Assembly: GCA_047627215.1 (NCBI GenBank)
Contig: JBLHTM010000001.1
Coordinates: 2,663 to 66,662 of the forward strand
Source: Rickettsiales bacterium
Lineage (GTDB): Bacteria > Pseudomonadota > Alphaproteobacteria > Rickettsiales > UBA1997
Direction of reading: 5' to 3'
Length of the DNA stretch: 64,000 nucleotides
Of the stretch, positions 4,082-45,560 are shown piece after piece. The stretch's first letter is position 1. Every line of letters starts with the position of its first letter. The notes under the pieces are model-generated. The model was given only the letters and a program-made list of their open reading frames with translations, had not been told where the DNA came from and did not search any database. The translations under genes and the position numbers were made by a program.

Positions 4082-5276
4082 GATCAAAACTATTTCCTAC
4101 TCATTAATTTTCATTTTCTTCTTTTCGGCTCTTTCTTCAGCAGAAGATATTAAGGCCGCAAACTCTTTAGAATCTCAGTCAAAAGACCAAGAATTATTAG
4201 AATCTTTAAAAAAATTATTAGAAGGGTCTCAGCAAAAAAATACAGTTAAGACTTTAGATTCAACAAAAGAGGATTCTCCAGTAATATCTGTTAAAAAAAC
4301 AACATCTACAAACAGCACAGATGGCCAATTAATTGTCACTGATTCTCAACCTAAAACAAAAAATACCCAACAACTTAAACCAGATCCAGACATTATCATT
4401 AAACAAGTGGAGCCTCAGAAGATAACCAATCAAAATGTTGACATCCAAAATTCTAAACAAAATCAATTGACGAACGAGAAACCTATACAAAAATCAGTCT
4501 CAACCCTGGAGGCGATTGATCAAATACAAAAAAGCCTAATATTCTCAGGAAACGTGAAGCCAAAAAGGTTAGTTACTCAAAAAAAACCTTCTAACATCAT
4601 CAATAGATCTTCCGATGTCACATCAAGGGTTGATATTCTAGTCCTTAACCCTTCCAAAAAAGGAAGCAAGGGTGATAGGCAAAAAGAACAAATCGCCTAC
4701 AATGCTTCAATCGCCGGGCAATATGAAGTGGCAATTGCAATTTATAAACAAATCTTAAAAAAAGATCCCAATAATCATTATGCCTCTTTCTCGTTAGCAT
4801 CTTGCTACCACAAGCTTGATCAATACAAACAAGCTAAAATAATTTACTACGATCTTCTTAAAAAAGATTGGGCGGATCAAGAAACCAAGGAGCAATTAAT
4901 AGGAAATTTACTTGAAGTAATTGTGCAAGAATCACCAAATGAAGCAATCTACATGCTTGATAAACTAATTGATCAAAACCCAAACTCAGCCTATATCATG
5001 GCAGGAAGCGCAATGGCTTATGATACAATTAACAAGCCAGATCAGGCAATATTACTACTAAAAAGAGCGATCCATATGAACCCAAATGAAGAAACATACA
5101 GATTCAACTTAGCAGTTATTTTTGACAAAATAGGTGATTATCCAAGTGCAATTCCTCAATATCAATCAGTGATTAATAAATATATTTCTAGTGGAGATTT
5201 AGACGATTCAATACCGATTGAACAAATCAGACAAAGAGTGGAATTCATAAAAAACAAAGGACGGGATGAAAAATAA
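4074..5276 (+). CDS. exported TPR-repeat protein (possible pilus-associated PilF/PilW-like factor)
   Basis: I prefer the internal ATG at 4074 ([28 protein letters not shown], signal peptide) over the track start at 3996, which lies inside mnmG. It has a Q/K/T-rich linker and then TPR-like repeats ([18 protein letters not shown]..., [14 protein letters not shown]...). The 3' end overlaps pilT by 11 nt. Confidence 0.7.
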
Positions 5277-6329: not shown

Positions 6330-9300
6330 ATGCTCATAAAAACCACCAATCTACAAAATTTAGCATCAAATCCACTTAACTCCGCCTTTGTTTCTGCATC
6401 TGCCGGATCTGGGAAAACCAAAGTTTTAACCGATCGAGTTTTACGCCTTTTGCTTTGTGGAGCTCGACCTTCAAAAATTCTCTGCCTGACTTTTACCAAA
6501 GTTGCCGCCACGCAAATGCAGAATCGAATTTTTAAAGAGCTTGAAAATTGGGCGATTTGTGATCAAGAGACACTGAAAAATCAGCTTAAAAAATTCACCT
6601 CTCACGAACCTTCCCCCTCAGAAATAAAGACCGCCAGAAAACTATTTGCGAATTTGCTTGATGATGATTTTGGTCTGCAAATTTCCACCATTCACTCTTT
6701 TTGCCAAGGGATCATTAAACAATTTCCTATTGAAGCGAAAACTTCACCAAATTTTTCCATCATCAACGAACAGCAAGAAAATCAACTTTTGCTGGATTCT
6801 CGAAAATCAATCCTAAAAAAAGCTCTCACCAATTCTGACTTAGCAGAAAAAATCAATCTAATTTGCTCAAAACTCAACGAAACCAGTTTTTTGGATATTT
6901 CTTTTGAATTGATCAAAGAAAGACAAAAAATCTTTTGGTTGAAAGAAAAATATTTTGGAATAATAAATGTAATCGATGAAGTTTTTAAAGAAGTGGCGGT
7001 TGGTAGAGAAGAAAATGAAGAAACAGTTTTTTCTAGTTTTATTAATGATTCTGATTGGAGAAAAGATGATTTGACCGATTTATGTCAAAATTTCTCAATC
7101 AAAAATGGTCAAGAAATCATCAAATTCATCAATAATCCGGAACCTAAAAATCTTCAAGAATATCTGCAAGTTTTTCTAACGACAATTAACGAACCCAGAA
7201 AATCTCTAGTTTTAAAACCAGTTCAAAAACAAAATCCCTTGGCAATCGATTTAATGATTTTTGAACAAGATCGAGTTTTGAAATTCTTGGAAAAAACCAA
7301 CAATGTCAACATTGCCGTTTTAACTTCTGCCCTGCTTGAAGTTGTTGATCAGATCACTGGTAAATATGAAATTTTAAAAAACCAAAATGGCTATTTGGAC
7401 TACAATGACCTGATCATTAAAACCAACTCACTTCTTGAAAATTCTTCCGCCAGAGAATGGGTTAAGTACAAGCTAGATGGCTCATATGAGCATATTTTGA
7501 TCGATGAATCTCAGGACACCAATCATAGCCAGTGGGATATTGTTAAGATTATTACTGAAGAATTTTTTGCCGGAGAAGGTTTAAAAGATGAGCGTGAACT
7601 TTCCCGAACAATATTCATTGTCGGCGACGAGAAACAATCCATCTACAGTTTCCAGGGAGCTGATCCAGATATTTTTGCCAATATTTTTTACTTTTATCAA
7701 AACCAATTAAGTTTAATTGGTAAAGAATTCTTGAACATTGAACTTTCTAGTTCATTTCGCTCAATGCCAACAATATTAAAGACCGTCGACCAAGTTTTTG
7801 CCAAACCTGAGCTAAAAGATTCCATCAGCACTTTGGCGCAAAAAATTGAACATCATTCCATCAAAAATCACCATTCTGGAAAAGTTGAATTATTACCAAT
7901 TGTGATGATGCCAATTTTAGAAAAAGAGGAAAAGAATTATCGTTGGAAGCTTGATTTTCAAATAAAAGAAGAGTCAAAAGCGCAAGAAATTCTCGCCCAA
8001 ATTATTGCTAAAAAGATTAAAGGTCTTTTTAATGAAAAAAAGTTTTTGGCTTGCAAAGACCGTTTTGCCGAATTTGGGGATGTGATGATTCTTCTAAAAG
8101 AGCGCAAAAGCAATTTAGGAAAATTTTTGATAAAATATTTAAGTCAAGAGAACATTCCTGTCAGCAGCGCTGACCGCATTGATTTCAATAATAACATCAT
8201 TGTTTTGGATTTGATCTCTTTGGCGAAATTCATTCTTTTACCGGAAGACGATCTCAATCTCTCCTGTCTGCTAAAATCAATTTTCTTCAATCTTTCCGAG
8301 GATGATTTATTATCCAATTGCGACAATAAGAATCATTCAAGGGTCAGTTTATTTGATGCTTTAAAGCAAAATAATCCCAATCTTCACCAAGAACTTCAAA
8401 ATTTAATCACGAAAAACCAAGATCAGCAATTTTCTGTTTATGAATTTTTTAGTGATTTTCTGATCAAAAAATCCAAACAAAAGGATATTTTAGAAAAATA
8501 TGGCAAAGAAGGTGAGGAAATTGTTAACCAATTCTTGAAAATTTGCATCGATCATAAAGATCAAAATGTCAGTTCTGATTTACAAAAATTCGTTGAATTT
8601 CTAGAAAAATCTAATTTTCAAATCAAAATTGACGGATCTGGGCAAAATAAAAATCAGGTTTTTATCACTACAATTCACTCTGCAAAAGGCTTAGAAGCTC
8701 CGATTGTATTTTTGGCAGACACAGCTCATAGTACGCAAAAACAAATTGGTAATGATCGCAGTAGAATATTTTGGAATCCCGAAAACTCCCTACCTCTTTG
8801 GTCTCAAGGGTCAAAATTTGACAATTCTAATATTAAAAATATCAAAAAACTTGAACGAACAAATTCTAAAAAAGAATATTGGCGCCAACTTTATGTGGCA
8901 ATGACCAGGGCCGAAGAAGAGCTTTATATTTGTGGCTTTAGCAAACAAAAAATCGATCAAGATTGTTGGTATGAAACCATTAAAAAAGCAATTGTTGATG
9001 AGGCCATAGAAATTGAAGACTTCAATATTGATGAAAAATACAAAGAATATTTATTTGGGAAAAATCTTGTAGTTGGGGCGAGTTTCAACAATCACAAAAA
9101 GCTAGAAATAAACATTCCGCAAGAGATATTCAAAAAACCAGCTAAGCAAAATTTGAACAAAATAATTCCTGAAGAACTTTCAGCAGAAATTATCTACCCT
9201 TCAAAAACCAACCCAGATGATCTACAAATCAACCAATATCAAGCAGAATTTGGGAAGATTATTCACAAAATCCTAGAGTTACTTTTCAATCTAAAAATCA

Positions 9301-22692: not shown

Positions 22693-22730
22693 GAAATGGG
22701 TGGATTCTACAACAATTCACCCATTTTTTT
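22693..22730 (+). terminator. probable queA terminator overlapping the 3' end of the convergent U32 gene
   Basis: 9-bp stem aaatgggtg / cacccattt with a 15-nt loop, followed by T7. Confidence 0.45.
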
Positions 22731-24311
22731 AGTCTTTAAAAGCTCCCTAGCTTTAGCATATTTATCATCATGCCAAAACATTAAGCATCCGTTACAACCT
22801 TTTCCACAACATCCTTCCATTCCAACCCTTGGGGTTTTTGGAGAAATTTCTTTAATTTTTTGATCTAAAGAGCTCAAATATTTATCTCTCTTATTTTTAT
22901 ATTTGTGATCATTATCCGCCCCACCTTCCATCCTATGAGCCTGATTGTGTAGTTCTAAGCGGTTCTTATCACTTTTTTCCATCGCCTTTTCTTTTCGAAT
23001 CAACGTTAGCTCTGGTAATAATTCTTTTAGTTTTTCACCATCTTCCAAATGAAACAATGTCGCAGGGATGCGGACTAGATCTCTCTGTCCAGAATGGACT
23101 GCTTGCGTTTTTTTATTACCAGATTCATTTTCCAATTCATATATTCTCAGAAGAATTGGGTCTCTCTTTTGTGGAGACAAGAATTCCAAAACATCACCAA
23201 CAACAATACGGTTTTTGATTTGTATCAACATGTCGTCACCATCCCATTTAACAACTCGGGCCGCATATTCATAAACTGCTGTTGATTTTGTACTGTCGTA
23301 ATCATGAGCCAAGTTGGTCAACCTACCATCATGAAAAGCAAGTGTGTATCCACGATTGGCAACAGCTTCTAATTCACCCATGTATTTCTCCGAATCCCAG
23401 TCTTTTGGATTTTCGTAATAATCATCAATCGCCATTCGATAAGCTCTAGCAACCGTTCCTGCATAATATTCAGTTTTGTTACGACCTTCAACTTTTAGTG
23501 AATCAACGCCAATTTCTAAATATTCATTTAATTTAGGCATTAAACATAAATCTTTGGAGTTCAGAATATAAGATCCCGCCATATCTTCTTCGAAAGGCAT
23601 TAATTCACCAGGACGAATTTCTTCTTCCAAAAAGAAATCGAAAAGATCTTTATTCTGATCAGTGATTTCAATTTCGTGCTCAGTGTTGTCTTTTAGCTTT
23701 ATTTTAACCTTGTATCCCCATCTGCAGCTGTGAGCACAAGAACCTTGGTTAGCACCACGTTCTGACATAAAATTTGAAAGTAAACAACGGCCAGAATAGG
23801 TCATGCACATTGATCCGTGAACAAAAGCTTCAAGTTTAATATCTGGGCATTTCTCGCGGATTTCTTTAAGCTCAGCAAAACTAACTTCACGAGCCAAAAC
23901 TACTAATTTTGCGCCTTGATCTTGCCAAAATTTTACTGATAACCATGAACAAACATTGGCTTGGGTTGAGACGTGTATTTCTAGATTTGGAGCGTGTTCT
24001 TTTACGAAATGAGCAACTCCTGGATCAGATATTATCAGACCATCTGGATTTACTTTTTTGACTGTTTCGATGTATTCAGGAAGTTTTTCGATATCTTTGT
24101 TATGAGAGAACAAATTCAAAGTTAGATAGACCTTTTTACCTTTAGAATGAGCATATTCAATTCCTTCAACCAAGTCTTCTAGGCTAAAAGATGATTTGGT
24201 GCGCAAAGACATATCTGGAGTTCCACAATAAACTGCATCAGCTCCATAAAGAATTGCAGTTTTTAAGCGATCAAGTGATCCTGCCGGTAAGAGAAGTTCT
24301 GATTTTTTCAT
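22707..24311 (-). CDS. U32-family (peptidase U32 / Fe-S hydroxylase-type) protein with an extra Cys-rich C-terminal module
   Basis: 534 aa. N-terminal ELLLPAGS...AILYGADAVY. Conserved Cys cluster HGSMCMTYSGRCLLS...GSCAHSCRW. C-terminal GCCGKGCNGCLMFWHDD. Confidence 0.8.
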   Translation of the reverse strand: MKKSELLLPAGSLDRLKTAILYGADAVYCGTPDMSLRTKSSFSLEDLVEGIEYAHSKGKKVYLTLNLFSHNKDIEKLPEYIETVKKVNPDGLIISDPGVAHFVKEHAPNLEIHVSTQANVCSWLSVKFWQDQGAKLVVLAREVSFAELKEIREKCPDIKLEAFVHGSMCMTYSGRCLLSNFMSERGANQGSCAHSCRWGYKVKIKLKDNTEHEIEITDQNKDLFDFFLEEEIRPGELMPFEEDMAGSYILNSKDLCLMPKLNEYLEIGVDSLKVEGRNKTEYYAGTVARAYRMAIDDYYENPKDWDSEKYMGELEAVANRGYTLAFHDGRLTNLAHDYDSTKSTAVYEYAARVVKWDGDDMLIQIKNRIVVGDVLEFLSPQKRDPILLRIYELENESGNKKTQAVHSGQRDLVRIPATLFHLEDGEKLKELLPELTLIRKEKAMEKSDKNRLELHNQAHRMEGGADNDHKYKNKRDKYLSSLDQKIKEISPKTPRVGMEGCCGKGCNGCLMFWHDDKYAKARELLKTKKMGELL

Positions 24312-24492
24312 GACAATATTTTATTTTTTAATTGGTACATTAGGAGTCTTCATCCCGGAGATAAATTTTGTTCATCACCTTCTCTATATTACAAAATAAT
24401 CATCAGGCTCCTCGTAAAATACAATAATTATTCCTGTTTAACGAGATGCCGGATATAAAACCTCTAGTCAGAAAAATCTGCTAAGAGTTTTT

Positions 24493-24654
24493 ATACCAAG
24501 TCCCAACTATAATTCTATATATGAACAAAGTATTTTGTGGTATAGATTATTGAAAAATTAAGACATATATCCTTTGATAAATGTCTTAATTTTTTGATGA
24601 TTTATGACGAAAAAGACAAAGTTCATATACGTAATTATAGTTGGAACTTGGTAT
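24493..24654. repeat. 162-bp imperfect palindromic element, copy 1 (MITE/RPE-like or structured RNA)
   Basis: Outer 34-nt arms (24493-24526 / 24621-24654) are complementary at 30 of 34 positions. A central perfect 14-bp hairpin (24553-24566 / 24581-24594) has a 14-nt loop. Termini ATACCAA...TTGGTAT. Homologous to 39614-39774. Confidence 0.7.
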
Positions 24655-24750
24655 TATATCCGGTATGAAGATATTTTTAACCTCTGGGCACAAAATACAC
24701 CAAAAGGCCGTATATCTATCATGAAGATATTTGTTACAATTCTTTATACT

Positions 24751-24790
24751 AAAAAAGCGCTTAGAACCTTTCGGCTCTAAGCGCTTTTTT
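24751..24790 (-). terminator. rho-independent (bidirectional-looking) terminator of pnp
   Basis: A6-gcgcttagaacc-tttc-ggctctaagcgc-T6. It lies 22 bp past the pnp stop. Confidence 0.8.
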
Positions 24791-24811: not shown

Positions 24812-27040
24812 TTATTTACCAAAAAATCCTCTTTTTTTCTTAGGCTCTTCTGGCTTATCAGAATCATCCCTTACTCTACGATCATCTCTATCACCCCTTC
24901 CTTTTCTTTCTTCGCGTTCTTCAGGAGCTGGGAATTTATGAGATATATCTTCACCAGTTGTCTGATCAACTGATCTGAAGCTCAATTTAGGGCGACTTTT
25001 TTTGTCAAAACCAATAACTTTAACTTTAACGATTTCACCTTCATTGATAACATCTTCAACAAATTCAACACGATATTCAGCAAGTTCAGATATGTGAACA
25101 AATCCGTCTTTTCCTTCAGCGATATTGATAAATGCACCAGCGTCGATAACTTTAACAACAGGTCCTTCATAAATACTACCGACTTCTGGTTCAAAAGTGA
25201 TGCCGTTGATGATTGCAATTGCTTTTTTAGTTGCTTCAGGGTCGTTACTACTGATTTTAACAACACCATCATCGTTGATGTCGATAAGAACCCCGGTATC
25301 TTCACAGATTCCTTTGATAACTTTTCCTTTAGCGCCAATAACTTCTCTGATTTTTTTAACTGGAATGTTAAGAATTTCAACTTTTGGAATGTTATCATTC
25401 AAGGTTGTTCTAGCTTCGGACAAAGCTTCGGACATTTTGTCTAAAATGTGCAATCTTCCGTCTTTGGCTTGATTCAATGCACTTCCCATGATGGGGAAGT
25501 CAATACCATTTATTTTGATATCCATTTGCAAAGCAGTGATACCGTCTTTGGTTCCAGCAACTTTAAAATCCATATCACCTAAATGATCTTCGTCACCCAA
25601 GATGTCAGACAATACAACATAATCCTCTCCCTCCTTGATCAATCCCATGGCAATTCCAGAAACTGCTTTTGGCATAGGAACGCCAGCATCCATTAGTGAC
25701 AAAGAAGCCCCACAAACTGAAGCCATTGAAGATGAACCATTTGATTCAGTTATTTCAGAAACAACCCTACTAACATAACCGAACTCTTCTTGGCTTGGCA
25801 AGATTGGATTGATAGCTCTCCAAGCTAATTTACCATGACCAATTTCTCTTCTTCCTGGAGGGCCAAATCTGCCAACCTCACCAACTGAATATGGAGGGAA
25901 GTTATAGTGAAGCATAAAAGTTTCTTTAGTGTGAGCAGAATCGATACTGTCGATAGTTTGCTCGTCTCTAGAAGATCCTAGTGTAGTAACAACTAAAGCT
26001 TGAGTTTCTCCCCTAGTGAACAAAGCTGAACCATGAGCTCCTGGAAGGATCCCAACTTCAGCTTTAATTTCTCTAACTTCGTTAACTTTTCTACCGTCAA
26101 TTCTGGTTCCACTTTTAACAATATCACCACGGACGACGTTTTTTTCTAAGTTTTTGAAGATTGAAGCAAGCTTGTTTTCATCAACTCCTTTTTCTTCATC
26201 AATGAATTTTGCAATGATTTCAGATTTGATAGCATCAAGATCAGATGATCTTTCTTGCTTAACTTGTTTTTTATAAGCAGAAGTGATTCTTTCACCAAAC
26301 TCACCAGAAACAGTGGCAATCAAAGCGCTGTTATCTTCAGAAGTAACTTCGATTTTTGTTACGCCAGCTTCGGATTTGAATTCATTAATTGCATCGATAA
26401 CACCTTGCATTTTTTCGTGACCAAATTTAACCGCTCCAAGCATGACTTCTTCAGAAAGCTCTTTAGCTTCAGATTCAACCATAAGAACAGAAGATTTGGT
26501 TCCAGCAAGAATCAATTCCAATTTACTGTCTTTTAATTCAGCGTTGCTTGGGTTTAAAACATATTCACCGTTAACATATCCAACTCTTGCGCCAGCAATT
26601 GCTTCTGACAAAGGAGCTTCGGAAATTGAAAGTGCCGCAGAAGCGCCAATCAAAGCAACGATATCTGGATTGTTTTTAGGATCGTATGAAAGAACCGTAC
26701 AGATAAGGTTTATTTCATTGTGGAAATTAGAGGGGAACATTGGGCGAATAGGACGATCAATCAATCTTGAAGTCAAAGTAGCATTATCTGAAGGCTTAGC
26801 TTCTCTTTTGAAAAATCCACCTGGAATTTTTCCGGCTGCGTAATATTTTTCAACATAATGAACAGTAAGTGGCAAGAAGTTAGCTCCAACAAGTGGTTTT
26901 TTAGAAACGGTTACTGCGCAAAGAACAACGGTTTTTCCCATTGTAGCTAAAACAGAACTTGCTTGTCTGGCAATCTTACCAGTTTCCAAGGTAATGGTTT
27001 TATCACCAAATTGAATTTCTTTTTTAATCTCGTTAAACAT
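24812..27040 (-). CDS. pnp: polyribonucleotide nucleotidyltransferase (PNPase)
   Basis: 742 aa with two RNase PH domains plus KH and S1 domains (GRREIGHG, SDILGDEDHLGDMDFKVAG). Charged R/D/E/K-rich C-terminal tail. Confidence 0.97.
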   Translation of the reverse strand: MFNEIKKEIQFGDKTITLETGKIARQASSVLATMGKTVVLCAVTVSKKPLVGANFLPLTVHYVEKYYAAGKIPGGFFKREAKPSDNATLTSRLIDRPIRPMFPSNFHNEINLICTVLSYDPKNNPDIVALIGASAALSISEAPLSEAIAGARVGYVNGEYVLNPSNAELKDSKLELILAGTKSSVLMVESEAKELSEEVMLGAVKFGHEKMQGVIDAINEFKSEAGVTKIEVTSEDNSALIATVSGEFGERITSAYKKQVKQERSSDLDAIKSEIIAKFIDEEKGVDENKLASIFKNLEKNVVRGDIVKSGTRIDGRKVNEVREIKAEVGILPGAHGSALFTRGETQALVVTTLGSSRDEQTIDSIDSAHTKETFMLHYNFPPYSVGEVGRFGPPGRREIGHGKLAWRAINPILPSQEEFGYVSRVVSEITESNGSSSMASVCGASLSLMDAGVPMPKAVSGIAMGLIKEGEDYVVLSDILGDEDHLGDMDFKVAGTKDGITALQMDIKINGIDFPIMGSALNQAKDGRLHILDKMSEALSEARTTLNDNIPKVEILNIPVKKIREVIGAKGKVIKGICEDTGVLIDINDDGVVKISSNDPEATKKAIAIINGITFEPEVGSIYEGPVVKVIDAGAFINIAEGKDGFVHISELAEYRVEFVEDVINEGEIVKVKVIGFDKKSRPKLSFRSVDQTTGEDISHKFPAPEEREERKGRGDRDDRRVRDDSDKPEEPKKKRGFFGK

Positions 27041-38189: not shown

Positions 38190-39524
38190 TTACCATATTT
38201 TTTGAATTTCAAAGTTCTTATCTTGATTTTCAATCTCAATCTCACCCTTCCCCTTAACAGCTTTCCATTTTAGAGACAAAGATTCAATTCCATCGTCATT
38301 GAAATAAATGTGAGAAGACGAGACTGTTCCAGACATCAAATTCCAAGTTGGGTCAACATAGATCCAGCGATTATTATGGTGAATAAGATTCCAAGCATGA
38401 CCTTCGAAACCATCATATTCGCCATGAGCAACCCCAACAACAACTAGTGATGGAATTCCGGCGGTGCGAGCGAGAGAATTATAAAGCTTGGCATATTCAG
38501 TGCAAACACCCATTTTATTAATTATTATTTTTTCCAAATTTGGCAGTTTATTAATGTAGGACAAATCGTATTTTATGTAATTGTGAACATAAACTCCTAT
38601 TTTAGCGTAGAGAGGAAAGCCTTTTAAATCATCATCTTGGCTTATATCTTTTAGCATGGCAGATAATAAAAATTTATCTGAATCGCTAATTTGTAAATAA
38701 TCGGACGGATTTCTGTGAATATTTGAACGATTATCATTTCCGGTTTTGATTTGGGATGTAATTTGCAGGAAAATATTTTTATTTTCCAAATTACCAAACC
38801 CGAGGACACTTTTACCTTCGTTGGTTTTTATTTTGGTTGCCGGATTGGAGGTTATTTGATAGCCATATTTTTGCTGTCCACTATTTGAAAAATAATTAGG
38901 AATAGACATTTCTAGTGAATTAATTTTCCCAGTAGCGCGAATAGAGTTTTTAATTTTCACATTCCAAGAATTTCGAGAATTGGTCAATTTAACAATTTCC
39001 GAAATTCCTTTAGGCGGGACAATACCTTTATAAACAAACTTTTTATTAAATTCCTTAATATTTTTATTCAAAGTGGCTGAGGTCAAGGACCAAGGATAAT
39101 AAACTTCAACTTGTGCAAAAGCCCCACTAGTAAAAGAAGGAACACGTATTATTTCACTCCTTAAATATTGGTGAATTTTTCCATATTTTTCAATATATGC
39201 AAAATTAATTACCAATTCATCATTATTAGATTTTTTGCGCGGGAATGAGATTTTTAGGTGATTATTTTGAAAGGAATTTTTAGTTTTTTGATTGTCTATC
39301 AAGACTCCCTTGATCTTTATTTTCTGTCTTGGGTCAAAAGAAATTTCAAATCCATTGTGATATTGATTCTTGGCAAGGTCAGTGATTCTTGCTTTTATTC
39401 TCACATTGGATTCCTTGCCATTTTTAGTGAGAATTATTTTCTCATCCCAATTGGTGATTTGGATTTCAGCTTGCACTGAGAATGGAAATAAGATTAATAA
39501 AATGATTGATATTTTAAACATCAA
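38190..39524 (-). CDS. exported transglutaminase-like (Cys-His-Asp) protein
   Basis: 444 aa. Signal peptide MMFKISIILLILFPFSVQA. Core MGVCTEYAKLYNSLARTAGIP...GHAWNLIH...YVDPTW matches the transglutaminase-like catalytic triad spacing. Confidence 0.75.
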   Translation of the reverse strand: MMFKISIILLILFPFSVQAEIQITNWDEKIILTKNGKESNVRIKARITDLAKNQYHNGFEISFDPRQKIKIKGVLIDNQKTKNSFQNNHLKISFPRKKSNNDELVINFAYIEKYGKIHQYLRSEIIRVPSFTSGAFAQVEVYYPWSLTSATLNKNIKEFNKKFVYKGIVPPKGISEIVKLTNSRNSWNVKIKNSIRATGKINSLEMSIPNYFSNSGQQKYGYQITSNPATKIKTNEGKSVLGFGNLENKNIFLQITSQIKTGNDNRSNIHRNPSDYLQISDSDKFLLSAMLKDISQDDDLKGFPLYAKIGVYVHNYIKYDLSYINKLPNLEKIIINKMGVCTEYAKLYNSLARTAGIPSLVVVGVAHGEYDGFEGHAWNLIHHNNRWIYVDPTWNLMSGTVSSSHIYFNDDGIESLSLKWKAVKGKGEIEIENQDKNFEIQKIW

Positions 39525-39613
39525 GGAATGTAAATTTGATTAGATTGCACTTGATTAAAATATCACATTTTTTATTAAAATGAAACGAAAGGTTCAAAGA
39601 TAAAAAAACAATT

Positions 39614-39774
39614 ATACCAATTATCACAGTTAGATGTACATTTAGGCAAAATATTTTTGAGTATAAAATTGGGAAAAAAAATCTTCTGTATCATGGCATA
39701 TAGAAGATATTTCTTCCCAATTTTAGACCAAAAAGATGAAGCATAAATGTACAGATAACTGTGATGATTGGTAT
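39614..39774. repeat. 161-bp imperfect palindromic element, copy 2 (same family as 24493-24654)
   Basis: Outer 31-nt arms (39614-39644 / 39744-39774) are complementary at 28 of 31 positions. The inner stem (39669-39687 / 39702-39720) has a 14-nt loop. Same termini ATACCAA...TTGGTAT. It starts 6 nt after the autotransporter stop. Confidence 0.7.
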
Positions 39775-39780
39775 TATTCA

Positions 39781-42747
39781 CTAAAAACCATACCTAAAAT
39801 AAAGCGAACCTAGTTGTGATTTGTAGGTCGGCTTTTCTTCAACTTCATAATCTATCATCATCAAAATTCCATTTTTCTCATAAATATCTAAGCCAAAACC
39901 ATATTTTAGACTCTCTTTATCGATATTAGAATTTTTAATCCTGAAGCTATAATTTTGACCTTCAAATCTATTCATTGAAGATTGATCACTAGCGAGAAAA
40001 TCATATCCGTAACTGACACTGAATCTTGGCTTAATTTTCGTTGATAGGATTTCCAAATCATCATACCTCAAATCCACCCCAAACCTTCCTTCAAAAGAAT
40101 CATTTTTCTCGTTACTAACTTGCAAATTCAGGGTCCCTGACCCAGTTTCGCTGTAGGTTGAAATTTGATTCCTTGCCATTATTAGGCTGATTCTTGGAGT
40201 TAGGGAAAATCCATAATCAATATTGTTGGTCATTCCACCGTCAAATTTTACCATATAAGTTTCTCCTCCATAATCAGCTTTGGCAATCAGATTCATTTCC
40301 GGCATCGGTCTTATTGAACTGTATTTATTAACCGCAACACCAATAATTGCACTGATAAAATATGGCTTAAAATCATATCCTCCATAAAGATTGAACTGAA
40401 GGCTTTCAATGGCAGTTTCTTTTTTATTAGAACTATTTGATTCAACATTCGCCATAGAAAAACTTGATGAAACTCCGAGTCGTAAATTTTTGGCAATTTC
40501 CTGATCCACACCAACCGCCAAACCTTGAGAGGAATATTCATATCCCATCGAGTCTTCAACGTCATTTTGCGTTGCGGAAGATCCAAATCCTTGAATCCAT
40601 ATCGCCTGATCATCAAAAATTTCATCGTCAAAACTCAATTTATTTAAGCTGGATATGTTTTCTTTTTTTGAAAAATTAGAAAAGTTCTTGGGATTCTTCG
40701 AATTTGGGAAATCACCAAAGTTATTTTTCGATTCTCTTAATAATGAATTTTCCAATCTATTTGAGGTGATATTGATGGAAGATTTTGCCGAATTTAATGA
40801 GCTATTATTTAGATCTTGGTTATTTTGAGGAATTGTAGATTGCAGAGCTGAGGATCTTTGAGAATTGGCGGTTGATGTCCGGTCAATGAATTTTTGCAAA
40901 TTGCGAAGTTCGCCAATTGCGCCTGATCCGATCTTATCAATATTTTGGTATGATTGAGCCGAGAATTTGTTTTTTGTGAAAGTTTCAGCTCCTTTGCGAT
41001 CAACTACAAGGAATAATTCAGATCCATATTTTCTAGTATTGAAAGTGAGCAACCCTGATTGATTTGAAGTTGAATTATTAACATCAATATTGAAGCTGGA
41101 AACCTTATTTACTTCTCCAGAAGATCCAGAAATAATGGCTATTTCAGATCCATCGGATAAATATCCAGAATCAGAATCGTAAGAAATTTGCAGATTAATA
41201 TTTTCACCAACAGCCACATCTCCGGCAGATTTCAAGCTTCCAACATTGGAATTATTCAAAGCATTTATTCTTAAAATATCACCATCAGAAACTGAGAAAT
41301 TACCAGAAATTTCATGATTTGCGCTTCCAAAATCAATAATGGCCGATCCTCCAGAAGTTGATAAATTTCCGGTGATGATTTTTGCAGAATTACCTAAATC
41401 TAAAATTCCTATAATTGAAATATTTTGCGCAGAAATATCAGCATTTGCGGTCAATATATTTCCAGATGAAATATTTAGATTAGCAAGAGATTGATCTTTT
41501 CCAATTTCATAATTGCTGGTGTAATCATGATTAATGTTAAAAGTTCCTTTTCCGGCGCCACTTGCGCGAACAATTCCGTTAATTATTCCACCATTGTAAT
41601 TGAAAATCGCATTCGAATTGAGACGAATTAGCGAATTTGAATCAGCACCAATTGAACCGTTATTTTGAGTCAAAACTGGAGAAACTAATACTGAAGTTGA
41701 AGAGATTGAGCCTTCACCAATATTAATTATGTCGGCATTGAAGGAAATATCATTTTTGATAATTAGTGACGTTTCATTGGAGATCAAAATCTCTGCCAGT
41801 TTTTTATCTTTTCCAAAAGAATCTGCTGGGGAATAACTATTATTTGACCCAGAAAATTGTAAAGTTCCACTACCATTAATTGTACCATTAATATTACCAG
41901 AAACAGTAGAATTTATATTAATGTCTAATTTTGCACCTTCGAAAATATTTATATTATCAGACGTAATAGATTGATAATTGGATTTCAAGGTTCCATTTTT
42001 ACCCTCGCCAACATTAATTGTAGTGGCAATAATACTCTTACCTAATGTCACTGTCGAACCATTATTTACTTTTATTTCTGATAATTCATCTCCATCAATA
42101 TTCCTTATAATATCGAATTTTGTCGTGTCGCTACCAGAAAAAATAAGAGATCCTGAGCCTTCAACGGTTCCAACAATATCACCTCCGCCATAATTCAATG
42201 TGGATCCTGAATTAATCTTCAGAAAAAGCGTATCAATGTTTTTATTTGAGGTATTTAGAGTGGAATTATTAGAAATTTCAACCAAATTTAAAGTTGTTGT
42301 TTTGGTTCCAACACTAGCAAAAAGAGTGTTGTCATTTTTAAAATTAACCGCCCCAACCTCATCAGATTCTCCCCTAATACTTACCTCAATATTTCCCCCT
42401 TCAACTGACAAGGTTGCATTATTGGAAATTTTAACGGTACTAGAAATATCAACATTGCCATTTAGAATTGAATCAAAATCAATGGCAATTTTTCCTGCTC
42501 CAGAAACATTGCCATTTAAGGTTCCTCCATTAAATATTGTGGTTTGATCGGAATTTCCCATGATGATGTTGGCGTCCAAAACACCACCTGAATCTATTGT
42601 TAAAGTTGAATCTGAAGATTCGGAAGATAGGTCAATATCTGAATTTTCTACATTTGATATTATTCGATCAATTGCAAAAGAATTGGATATAAAAAATAGA
42701 AAAAACGAAAGTACAAAAAACGGTAATATTGTGGTAGTTTTTGACAT
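39781..42747 (-). CDS. autotransporter (type Va) outer-membrane protein
   Basis: 988 aa with a signal peptide. N/S/G/I-rich passenger with repeated G.G.L.F.G / N..G.I.G beta-helix-like units. C-terminal ~280-aa beta-barrel translocator (WIQGFGSSATQ... ending ...YFRYGF with terminal Phe). Confidence 0.85.
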   Translation of the reverse strand: MSKTTTILPFFVLSFFLFFISNSFAIDRIISNVENSDIDLSSESSDSTLTIDSGGVLDANIIMGNSDQTTIFNGGTLNGNVSGAGKIAIDFDSILNGNVDISSTVKISNNATLSVEGGNIEVSIRGESDEVGAVNFKNDNTLFASVGTKTTTLNLVEISNNSTLNTSNKNIDTLFLKINSGSTLNYGGGDIVGTVEGSGSLIFSGSDTTKFDIIRNIDGDELSEIKVNNGSTVTLGKSIIATTINVGEGKNGTLKSNYQSITSDNINIFEGAKLDININSTVSGNINGTINGSGTLQFSGSNNSYSPADSFGKDKKLAEILISNETSLIIKNDISFNADIINIGEGSISSTSVLVSPVLTQNNGSIGADSNSLIRLNSNAIFNYNGGIINGIVRASGAGKGTFNINHDYTSNYEIGKDQSLANLNISSGNILTANADISAQNISIIGILDLGNSAKIITGNLSTSGGSAIIDFGSANHEISGNFSVSDGDILRINALNNSNVGSLKSAGDVAVGENINLQISYDSDSGYLSDGSEIAIISGSSGEVNKVSSFNIDVNNSTSNQSGLLTFNTRKYGSELFLVVDRKGAETFTKNKFSAQSYQNIDKIGSGAIGELRNLQKFIDRTSTANSQRSSALQSTIPQNNQDLNNSSLNSAKSSINITSNRLENSLLRESKNNFGDFPNSKNPKNFSNFSKKENISSLNKLSFDDEIFDDQAIWIQGFGSSATQNDVEDSMGYEYSSQGLAVGVDQEIAKNLRLGVSSSFSMANVESNSSNKKETAIESLQFNLYGGYDFKPYFISAIIGVAVNKYSSIRPMPEMNLIAKADYGGETYMVKFDGGMTNNIDYGFSLTPRISLIMARNQISTYSETGSGTLNLQVSNEKNDSFEGRFGVDLRYDDLEILSTKIKPRFSVSYGYDFLASDQSSMNRFEGQNYSFRIKNSNIDKESLKYGFGLDIYEKNGILMMIDYEVEEKPTYKSQLGSLYFRYGF

Positions 42748-44039: not shown

Positions 44040-45467
44040 TTAATTTACATCAACCATCTTACGAACATCGCTCAAGTGACCATTAATTGCAGCAGCAACA
44101 GCCATCACTGGGCTTACCAGATGAGTCCTTCCTCCCCTACCCTGTCTTCCTTCAAAATTTCTATTAGAGGTGGAAGCACATCTTTCTCCATCTTCCAATT
44201 GATCAGAGTTCATTGCTAAACACATTGAACATCCTGGCTCACGCCATTCAAACCCGGCATCGATAAATATCTTATCCAAACCTTCAGCTTCAGCCTGTTC
44301 TTTAACAAGTCCAGAACCAGGAACAACCATCGCTAATTTAATATTTTTAGCAATTTTTTTACCTTTAGCTACTTTTGCTGCGGCGCGAAAATCTTCAATT
44401 CTTCCATTGGTACAAGAACCAATAAATACTTTGTCAATTTTAATTTCTTCCAGAAGAGTTCCAGACTCCAAACCCATATATTCCAAAGATCTTTTTACTG
44501 CACTTGCCTTTCCTTCATCTTGAAAATCTTTAATAAAAGGAACGGAAGAAGTGATAGGAAGAACGTCTTCAGGACTTGTCCCCCAAGTCACCTGTGGCGC
44601 AATATCATCGGCATGTAAAATTATTGTTTCATCATAAACTGCTCCATCGTCAGATTTTAAAGATTTCCAATATGTAAGTGCTTTTTGAAAATCTTCACCT
44701 TTTGGAGCCAAAGGGCGATTTTCCAAATAATCATACGTCACTTGATCAGGAGAGATCAATCCAGCTCTGGCTCCAGCTTCAATTGCCATATTGCAAATTG
44801 TCATTCTTCCTTCCATTGACAATTTTCTAATCACGTCACCCGTATATTCAATAACATATCCAGTTCCGCCAGCCGTTCCGAGCTTACCAATAACTGCCAT
44901 AGTAATATCTTTTGCAGTAACTCCAAAACCAAGTTCACCATCAATTTGAACTAACATATTTTTAGCTCTTTTTTGTATCAAGGTTTGAGTAGCTAAAACA
45001 TGCTCAACTTCTGAAGTTCCAATTCCAAATGCAAGAGCCCCGAAAGCACCGTGAGTTGAAGTGTGAGAATCTCCACAAACAATAACCATTCCTGGTTGAG
45101 TTAAGCCTTGCTCTGGACCAACAATATGAACAATTCCCTGTTTTTTATCATCTAAATCAAAATATTTGATACCGAATTCTTTACAATTTGCTTCCAATGT
45201 TTCTACTTGTATTTTTGAAGTCGCATCTTTTATTCCAGCGGTTCCATTACCTCTATCAGCGGTTATTGTCGGAACGTTGTGGTCTGCTACCGCTAAATGA
45301 GATTGCGGATTGCGCGGTTTTCTACCTGACATTCTAAGGCCTTCGAACGCTTGTGGAGAGGTAACTTCATGGATCAATTGACGATCAACATAAAGCAATT
45401 GACTAGACCCATCATCGTCGATCAAGTGAGAATCCCATATTTTATCGTAAGTAGTTTTAGCAACCAT
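44040..45467 (-). CDS. leuC: 3-isopropylmalate dehydratase large subunit
   Basis: I prefer the internal ATG at 45467 ([16 protein letters not shown]...). The track start at 45542 would run through the rpsD terminator. Aconitase-family Cys motifs ([20 protein letters not shown]). Confidence 0.93.
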
Positions 45468-45521
45468 TTTGTATTTTTTGTTTAGTGAGGAGCGTTGAAA
45501 ATATTTGCTTGGTGAGTAAGT

Positions 45522-45560
45522 AAAAAAAAACCCCAAGATCAAAATCTAAGGGCTTTTTTA
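45522..45560 (-). terminator. probable rho-independent terminator of rpsD
   Basis: Minus-strand gcccuuagau-uuug-aucuuggggu stem (8 bp with one mismatch and one GU) followed by U9. Confidence 0.45.

Follow-up and report, generated by a model that had tools for sequence, protein, structure and literature searches.

The 64,000-nucleotide stretch analyzed here (Rickettsiales bacterium, GenBank assembly GCA_047627215.1, contig JBLHTM010000001.1, positions 2,663 to 66,662 of the forward strand; hereafter the window) carries two related palindromes of about 160 bp in its intergenic spacers. The question they raise is whether such structures are mobile elements or structured small RNA (sRNA)/terminator modules, the two interpretations proposed in a sequence-only reading of this DNA. 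The first of these proved right, in that the palindromes are best filed as a new family of MITEs (transposable elements of the miniature inverted-repeat type); we put at about three in four the probability that they are ~160-bp non-autonomous transposable elements that duplicate a TNA target. Many copies, near-identical dispersed pairs, sharp ends with 3-nt repeats, random orientation and tandem or nested insertions carry this reading, and the two outcomes that the sequence-only reading had named as refuting it did not occur, since further copies were found and the compensatory changes proved genuine.

The anatomy described earlier for the two copies was reproduced in our analysis. Copy 1 is an imperfect palindrome at 24493-24654, whose 79-nt arms are 78% complementary and spaced by 4 nt. 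Its centre (24573.5) is exactly that of a perfect 14-bp stem (24553-24566 / 24581-24594) with a 14-nt loop, seen both in the sequence and in the fold of the plus strand (24553-24594), and its outer 34-nt arms are complementary at 30 of 34 positions. Copy 2 (39614-39774) measures 161 bp, has the same ATACCAA...TTGGTAT termini and also matches at 30 of 34 positions in the outer arms. The cores proper, TACCAA...TTGGTA, lie at 24494-24653 and 39615-39773 on the plus strand, which is the forward strand of the family in both copies. Each core is bordered by a TTA/TTA direct repeat, a putative 3-bp target-site duplication, at 24491-24493 and 24654-24656 for copy 1 and at 39612-39614 and 39774-39776 for copy 2, the last of these standing 4 nt before an autotransporter stop codon. 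The pattern ATACCAA-N135-160-TTGGTAT occurs twice in the window compared to 0.01 expected occurrences, and both copies fold far better than shuffled sequences (z = -14.1 for copy 1 and -12.4 for copy 2). In each copy, the two halves are inverted repeats over the whole length, and either strand can form a hairpin of ~75 bp. The copies align with one another in the same orientation only (61-63% identity, blastn E 5e-7) and share their internal spacing, with ATACCAA, 31 nt and TATTTT in one arm and AAAAGA, 31 nt and TTGGTAT in the other.

Whether the palindromes belong to a dispersed family was determined by scanning one genome per bacterial species with a pattern of 27 bases (ATACCAA-N31-TNTTTT-N58-86-AAAANA-N31-TTGGTAT). 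At least 40 loci were obtained, a number that is a lower bound for the copies. About 36 of them are clear hairpins of 148-170 bp, distributed over ~15 metagenome-assembled genomes (MAGs); most of the pattern-matched loci are in Rickettsiales-like or alphaproteobacterial MAGs, and one of these, JAURQX01, holds at least seven copies. The hairpin loci have further blocks in common (TCCCATCTTTAAT, CAAAATATTTTTGAGGATAAAATT, TTTTAGACCAAAAAGATGAAGC and the apical GTATC..GATATAC), and in these 8-kb loci nhmmer detected at least 10 more copies, some of them full-length and others truncated or with internal deletions. The termini ATACCAA/TTGGTAT are invariant; the search pattern enforces this in part, but the window copies, which were found independently, show the same termini. 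Among the pattern matches, L022, L025 and L043 were discarded as chance hits with neither a hairpin nor a match to the hidden Markov model (HMM), as was the single match on a viral contig (L051), which is A+T-rich and lacks a hairpin.

That copies exist outside the window was confirmed in the reverse direction, since a leave-out HMM built from 37 copies of other genomes matched exactly the two window sites in 64 kb, both on the plus strand (E 2.9e-28 for copy 2 and 9.5e-21 for copy 1). Each window copy is nearer to copies of other genomes (80-86%) than to its companion, to which it is only 63% identical. Copy 1 has 80-81% identity with L019-L021, members of a subfamily amplified in the MAG JAURQX01, and copy 2 is 86% identical to L039, so that the two belong to different subfamilies. 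The copies are intergenic, and most of them contain stops in all six frames with no frame open across the family, which rules out a coding palindrome. No match to the family was found by blastn in plasmid and phage collections, and the literature searched gave no description of it. Rfam gave 0 matches in the window at gathering thresholds and no relevant match in four loci at E up to 1, where the sole hit overlapping an element was a chance miRNA-hairpin below threshold.

One indication of mobility came from the ends. Identical trinucleotides flank 30 of the 42 full copies on both sides (TTA in 23, TAA in six and TCA in one), and nothing is conserved beyond them. A mere continuation of the inverted repeat would give TTA...TAA; the flanks are direct repeats instead and therefore belong to the target DNA, outside the element. 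In line with this, TAA flanks the forward-oriented elements L011, L020, L030 and L035, which means that the orientation of the trinucleotide is independent of that of the element, again as befits target DNA. Adjacent elements share one trinucleotide (L018, L029, L035 and L036), and in L019, L020 and L036 the left repeat is the TAA stop codon of the upstream gene. Further, pairs of nearly identical elements occur within the same MAG at unrelated loci with differing flanks (98.8% identity for L010/L024 and 99.4% for L019/L021, with several others above 90%). Orientation was unbiased, both with respect to neighboring genes (7 sense and 11 antisense) and with respect to GC skew, used as a proxy for the direction of replication (17 to 21).

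Two loci show tandem or clustered copies. In L018, elements at 2076-2238 and 2239-2411 stand in tandem and share one flanking TA/TTA, while in L036 three copies or half-copies, including a solo left half, were found within 3 kb (4132-4303, 4503-4565 and 6696-6881). These tandem and half copies suggest repeated insertion into a target regenerated by an earlier copy. An internally deleted copy of the copy 2 subfamily, reduced to 88 nt with the outer stem and a short loop, was observed in JAURQX01 (L028, 36-123) ~140 nt downstream of pnp; this is the same kind of spacer as that of copy 1 with a different subfamily in it, and hence an independent insertion.

The surroundings of copy 1 also bear on its arrival. 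This copy occupies the spacer that follows the stop codon of pnp (PNPase, 24812-27040) and leads up to the start of a U32 peptidase gene (22707-24311), both genes being on the minus strand. An extra 10-bp pair (24449-24458 / 24654-24663) had been noted around the element, with about 34 nt inserted on the left side only. The pair itself is real and forms part of a 17-nt pair with 88% complementarity, whereas its membership in the element did not hold, as it belongs to a local hairpin. When copy 1 and one TTA (24494-24656) are deleted, the flanks join into a 57-nt hairpin of -30.1 kcal/mol, indicating that a hairpin was already there when copy 1 entered its right arm; this accounts for the extra 10-bp pair and for the 34 nt on the left only. 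As judged from the inverted pairs and the fold of the deleted sequence, the interrupted hairpin has its left arm, its loop and the larger part of its right arm at 24446-24490, and the distal end of the right arm (TATCCGGTAT), its last bases, is beyond the element at 24657-24666. The outer CCGGATATAA hairpin was also considered as a second repeat family and rejected, its sequence being unique to the copy 1 locus.

A comparison with relatives of the flanking genes was made for both spacers. The loci L003 and L004, the nearest relatives with pnp-U32 synteny (83-89% nucleotide identity, with U32 95% identical), have no element, and their spacer measures 227 nt versus 500 nt in the window; insertion of copy 1 accounts for this odd 500-nt spacer. 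Other relatives (P0002, P0003 and P0006) differ in synteny. At the copy 2 locus, the neighboring transglutaminase-like protein has its closest homolog outside the strain at no more than 71% identity.

Both window copies are in spacers between co-directional genes, many copies of the family abut stop codons and the hairpins are very stable, all of which would also suit an intrinsic terminator or attenuator module repeated by happenstance, as the second of the earlier interpretations included. We consider this explanation very improbable. The ~75-bp stems are A+T-rich and have no T-run at either end, TTA and unconserved sequence following instead, and a terminator scan returned 0 terminator-like sites in both spacers. 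The pnp-U32 spacer possesses a hairpin of its own outside the element and just downstream of pnp (24751-24790), G+C-rich and set between an A-run and a T-run, which is likely the real terminator of this spacer and, from its sequence, looks like a bidirectional intrinsic terminator, though it was not called by the simple terminator scan. It is conserved in the element-free L003 and L004, where central changes keep pairing possible. Moreover, several copies are directly upstream of gene starts, such as L041, 14 nt from leuC. In this locus the copy (1027-1189) precedes the ATG of a gene that belongs to the aconitase family (PF00330) and resembles leuC by its start, MGKTLYDKIWD, and at such a distance the element must tolerate or supply transcription into the gene. 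The orthologous gene of the window (44040-45542, minus strand) has no element upstream.

The pairing within the palindromes was examined in an oriented alignment of 39 copies over the 30-bp outer stem. Compensatory changes, previously claimed from the two window copies, do keep the arms complementary throughout the family, as 94.3% of the outer-stem cells were paired compared to 70% in shuffles and ~40% with slid partners, and 23 of the 30 outer pairs had changed on both sides. The covariation score was 0.614, as opposed to 0.159 in shuffles. The inner stems are wholly different between subfamilies, with arm-against-arm Watson-Crick pairing of ~82% within each copy. The arms also show a conserved asymmetry, consisting of TATTTT on the left against AAAAGA on the right (an A.G mismatch) together with a purine-rich internal loop. 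These features define the forward strand, and HMM scores are approximately two-fold higher in forward than in reverse orientation.

To delimit the family beyond Alphaproteobacteria, an HMM was built from alphaproteobacterial copies only. It matched the Clostridia copies L031 and L033 as well as L032, on a contig binned as Bacteroidota (E ~1e-6), and did not match the chance hits L022, L025 and L043. These matches imply that the family, or the system that spreads it, has passed between phyla and has lasted there for long enough that it could adapt to 60% G+C. Two other loci, L009 and L016, gave no match to this HMM in spite of good forward-strand folds, and their homology is uncertain; L046 gave no match either and was likened to L031 and L033 by eye, from the alignment only. 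The Clostridia copies have housekeeping genes as neighbors, in contexts unrelated to one another (smc-ftsY, a DHODH-like gene and an AMMECR1 gene).

The copies in Clostridia MAGs of 57-62% G+C (L033 4854-5014, L031 7838-7997 and L046 481-638) contain 5-9 G.U pairs on the forward and 2-4 on the reverse strand. L033 (62% G+C) lies between smc and ftsY, 3 and 6 nt away from them; its left arm keeps the A+T-rich sequence of the family, while its right arm has changed from A to G where U.G pairing survives, and it folds at -77.3 kcal/mol in the forward versus -47.4 kcal/mol in the reverse direction. L031 is flanked by TCA/TCA. At the edge of the L033 locus (1-167) we also observed a raiA RNA (RF03072, 111.9 bits, above the gathering score), which is unrelated to the element.

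A number of results weigh against a non-autonomous transposon as the explanation of the family. Firstly, 12 of the 42 full copies are without a perfect 3-nt repeat, and the subfamily comprising L015, L017, L018 and L042 fits a 2-bp TA duplication better. Secondly, the element-free spacer of L003 and L004 is too diverged to be aligned as a clean empty site, and searches of metagenomes for the exact predicted empty sites of copies 1 and 2 gave 0 matches. Thirdly, no transposase with the same ends was found in the window, beside any copy or as a recurrent neighbor. Fourthly, the 2.3-Mb Clostridia contig of L031 has, among the matches listed, one strict-pattern match in one 8-kb stretch, and in this it resembles a gene or a low-copy element rather than a burst. 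Fifthly, in 33 of 39 copies the better fold is that of the forward strand, with a mean difference of -9.3 kcal/mol (Wilcoxon 1.7e-6) that reaches -20 to -30 kcal/mol in distant copies, and G.U outnumber A.C mismatches on this strand, the counts being 90 to 58 among alphaproteobacterial copies and 41 to 11 among the distant ones; these tests treat related copies as independent, so that their p-values overstate the effect. Such an asymmetry is unexpected under purely double-stranded cut-and-paste, which does not predict it, and hints that some single-stranded form, RNA or DNA, is under selection. The covariation, finally, is not decisive as proof of a selected fold, because the arms would also stay matched if both had to fit one transposase or if templated repair kept them so.

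The one-strand folding bias would be accounted for if the palindromes were structured non-coding RNA genes or cis-acting RNA modules, with the forward ~160-nt hairpin as their product, possibly a protein-binding or processing signal, and with the copies as gene duplicates. The better forward fold, the excess of G.U pairs (strongest in the distant copies), the A to G drift of the L033 right arm with its U.G pairs preserved, the A.G mismatch and purine internal loop conserved across phyla and the strong covariation all speak for such an RNA. Against it, the elements have no conserved flanking promoter or terminator, their random orientation would leave about half of the copies transcribed on the wrong strand, and up to several copies occur per 8 kb, some of them tandem, truncated or internally deleted. 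In addition, the copies have direct repeats on both sides, a relaxed Rfam search (E up to 1) yielded no matching family, and the strand statistics count kin copies as independent. On balance we regard this explanation as unlikely, and a trans-acting sRNA is disfavored given the copy number and the random orientation.

The strand asymmetry could alternatively belong to a single-stranded DNA hairpin mobilized by an HUH-type or another structure-recognizing enzyme, in the manner of IS200/IS605 ends or integron attC sites, with the conserved mismatches marking the active strand. This is improbable in our view. Elements of the IS200/IS605 type make no target duplication, whereas here TTA, TAA or TCA match on both sides; their hairpins are short and subterminal, while those of the family span the whole length; and neither a GC-skew bias (17 to 21) nor an HUH gene was seen near the copies. 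PATEs, which derive from IS200/IS605, and attC sites do offer precedents for folded single strands that are recognized strand-specifically, conserved mismatches marking the active one, but they have no target duplication and other conserved motifs. The direct repeats thus set the window family apart from IS200/IS605-like elements.

Taken by itself, the idea that the selected unit is the folded forward strand, RNA or single-stranded DNA, of a mobile 160-nt hairpin shared by Rickettsiales-like Alphaproteobacteria and G+C-rich Clostridia appears doubtful. In such an element, recognition of sequence would fall to the left arm, and the right arm would only have to pair with it, G.U being tolerated. 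If true, this would imply a so far undescribed structure-recognizing or RNA-dependent mobilization system that still leaves a TNA duplication.

Returning to a non-autonomous transposon as the preferred reading, most of the hallmarks of a MITE were found, i.e., a length below ~300 bp, no coding capacity, terminal inverted repeats, flanking direct repeats and dispersed near-identical copies. No autonomous partner bounded by these terminal repeats was seen in the window, in the loci or in the plasmid and phage collections. In agreement with the sequence-only reading, the window is free of transposases, as all 46 open reading frames (ORFs) of at least 150 amino acids carry housekeeping Pfam domains or show synteny. 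A terminal-repeat HMM revealed no long-range end pairs in 435 kb of loci, all-against-all clustering of the neighboring ORFs yielded no recurrent gene, and Pfam searches of the neighbors of distant copies and of all window ORFs found no transposase. One possible lead to the partner, or just another derivative, is a 71-nt hairpin in L006 (14343-14413; also in L007) with the ends CTAATA(C/T)CA...TGGTATTAG and a 27-nt block (TTTTAGGCGAAATATTTTTGAGG.TAAAAT) in common with the family. It is situated between a VTT-domain gene and an IS1595-family transposase accompanied by a SocA_Panacea gene. IS1595 elements make duplications of ~8 bp, and for this reason, and as no matching ends were found, that transposase was not adopted as the partner.

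The family resembles Tourist-type MITEs in being short and non-coding, in its terminal inverted repeats and in its A+T-rich 3-bp duplication (TTA/TAA) with 2-bp TA variants. Tourist elements proper are eukaryotic, however, and the link to Harbinger-IS5 rests on the size and sequence of the duplication alone. Harbinger-type transposons make 3-bp duplications, with 3, 2 or 0 bp in their relatives, and the bacterial IS5 family is akin to them (PMC12730594); members of that family are known in Rickettsiales such as Wolbachia (PMC3205602). Closer to the host, the Rickettsia palindromic elements (RPE-1 to RPE-10), which are palindromes 100-150 bp in length, are repeated many times in Rickettsiales genomes with no transposase known, and they are noted for open reading frames and for in-frame insertion into protein-coding genes (PMC3767692, PMC10969869). 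The window family is likewise palindromic, multi-copy in Rickettsiales-type genomes and transposase-less, but it is intergenic with stops in all frames, and RPEs are not described with a TNA duplication; the distinction was drawn from descriptions rather than from consensus sequences. Among the matches listed for the strict pattern there was no genuine Rickettsia genome, the records named "Rickettsia typhi" being lake MAGs. Several of the lake MAGs with the family are publicly labelled "Rickettsia typhi", "Lentimonas sp." or "Rhizobium sp."; their G+C content (27-39%) and gene content match the Rickettsiales-like group, so these labels look like taxonomic misassignments or mis-binning.

Correia elements of Neisseria and the ERIC/IRU elements of enterobacteria are intergenic MITEs of 100-170 bp with TA-containing targets, which form long RNA hairpins on co-transcription and can give rise to promoter boxes at their junctions. 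The window family is similar to them as an intergenic bacterial MITE with a hairpin and putative junction boxes. It differs in its unrelated termini and in its range, since those elements are confined to one genus or family while the window family extends to Clostridia and Alphaproteobacteria.

The mechanism that we propose on this basis would involve a DDE transposase, encoded elsewhere, that cuts and pastes or copies the element in trans. The enzyme would recognize the terminal and subterminal repeats and make a 3-nt staggered cut at T-N-A, which would give a duplication of the length usual for enzymes of the IS5 family and the PIF/Harbinger type. The insertion site of copy 1 would be in the right arm of the local hairpin, at a distance of 181 nt upstream from the U32 peptidase gene, and that of copy 2 in the spacer that extends from the autotransporter stop to the transglutaminase-like start. 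Transcription through either spacer would be predicted to yield an RNA hairpin of ~75 bp, and the element end plus its flank (TGGTATAAT) would provide a putative outward promoter box.

The analysis names and delimits a family that current annotation does not show, that is frequent in uncultured Rickettsiales-like genomes and that disrupts their short-read assemblies. As a "Tourist-like" bacterial element with a TNA duplication, it offers a concrete target for finding the missing transposase, and its cross-phylum relatives together with the one-strand folding bias raise the question of whether a single-stranded form serves its spread or a host function. Within the window, the insertions may have effects on the U32 and transglutaminase-like genes.

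Regarding the setting of the two copies, the window has a G+C content of 34.8%, and the nearest homologues of its proteins are in MAGs labelled "Rickettsiales bacterium". Both copies are antisense to their neighboring genes. In the pnp-U32 spacer, beside copy 1, the 12-nt sequence ATGAAGATATTT is present in two exact copies spaced by 56 nt (24665-24676 and 24721-24732), and a 10-nt perfect inverted match connects the inside of copy 1 (GTATTTTGTG, 24530-24539) with the flank (CACAAAATAC, 24689-24698).

The spacer of copy 2 extends from the stop codon of the autotransporter gene (39781-42747) to the start of the transglutaminase-like gene (38190-39524), both genes being on the minus strand. In this family, the element end with its TAA/TTA flank reads as an outward-facing extended -10-like box, and at copy 2 the end and flank form a promoter-like site on the minus strand (39611-39640; TGTACA, 18 nt, TG-n-TATAAT). 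By consensus match only, this candidate agrees at 10 of 12 hexamer positions, has TG ahead of the second hexamer and is located 87 nt upstream of the transglutaminase-like gene. Two short-read (Logan) contigs, L054 and L055, in which the transglutaminase-like gene is identical to that of the window, end inside copy 2 (window ~39748), 227 nt upstream of this gene, as is expected for a repeat. All contigs of the same strain carry the copies.

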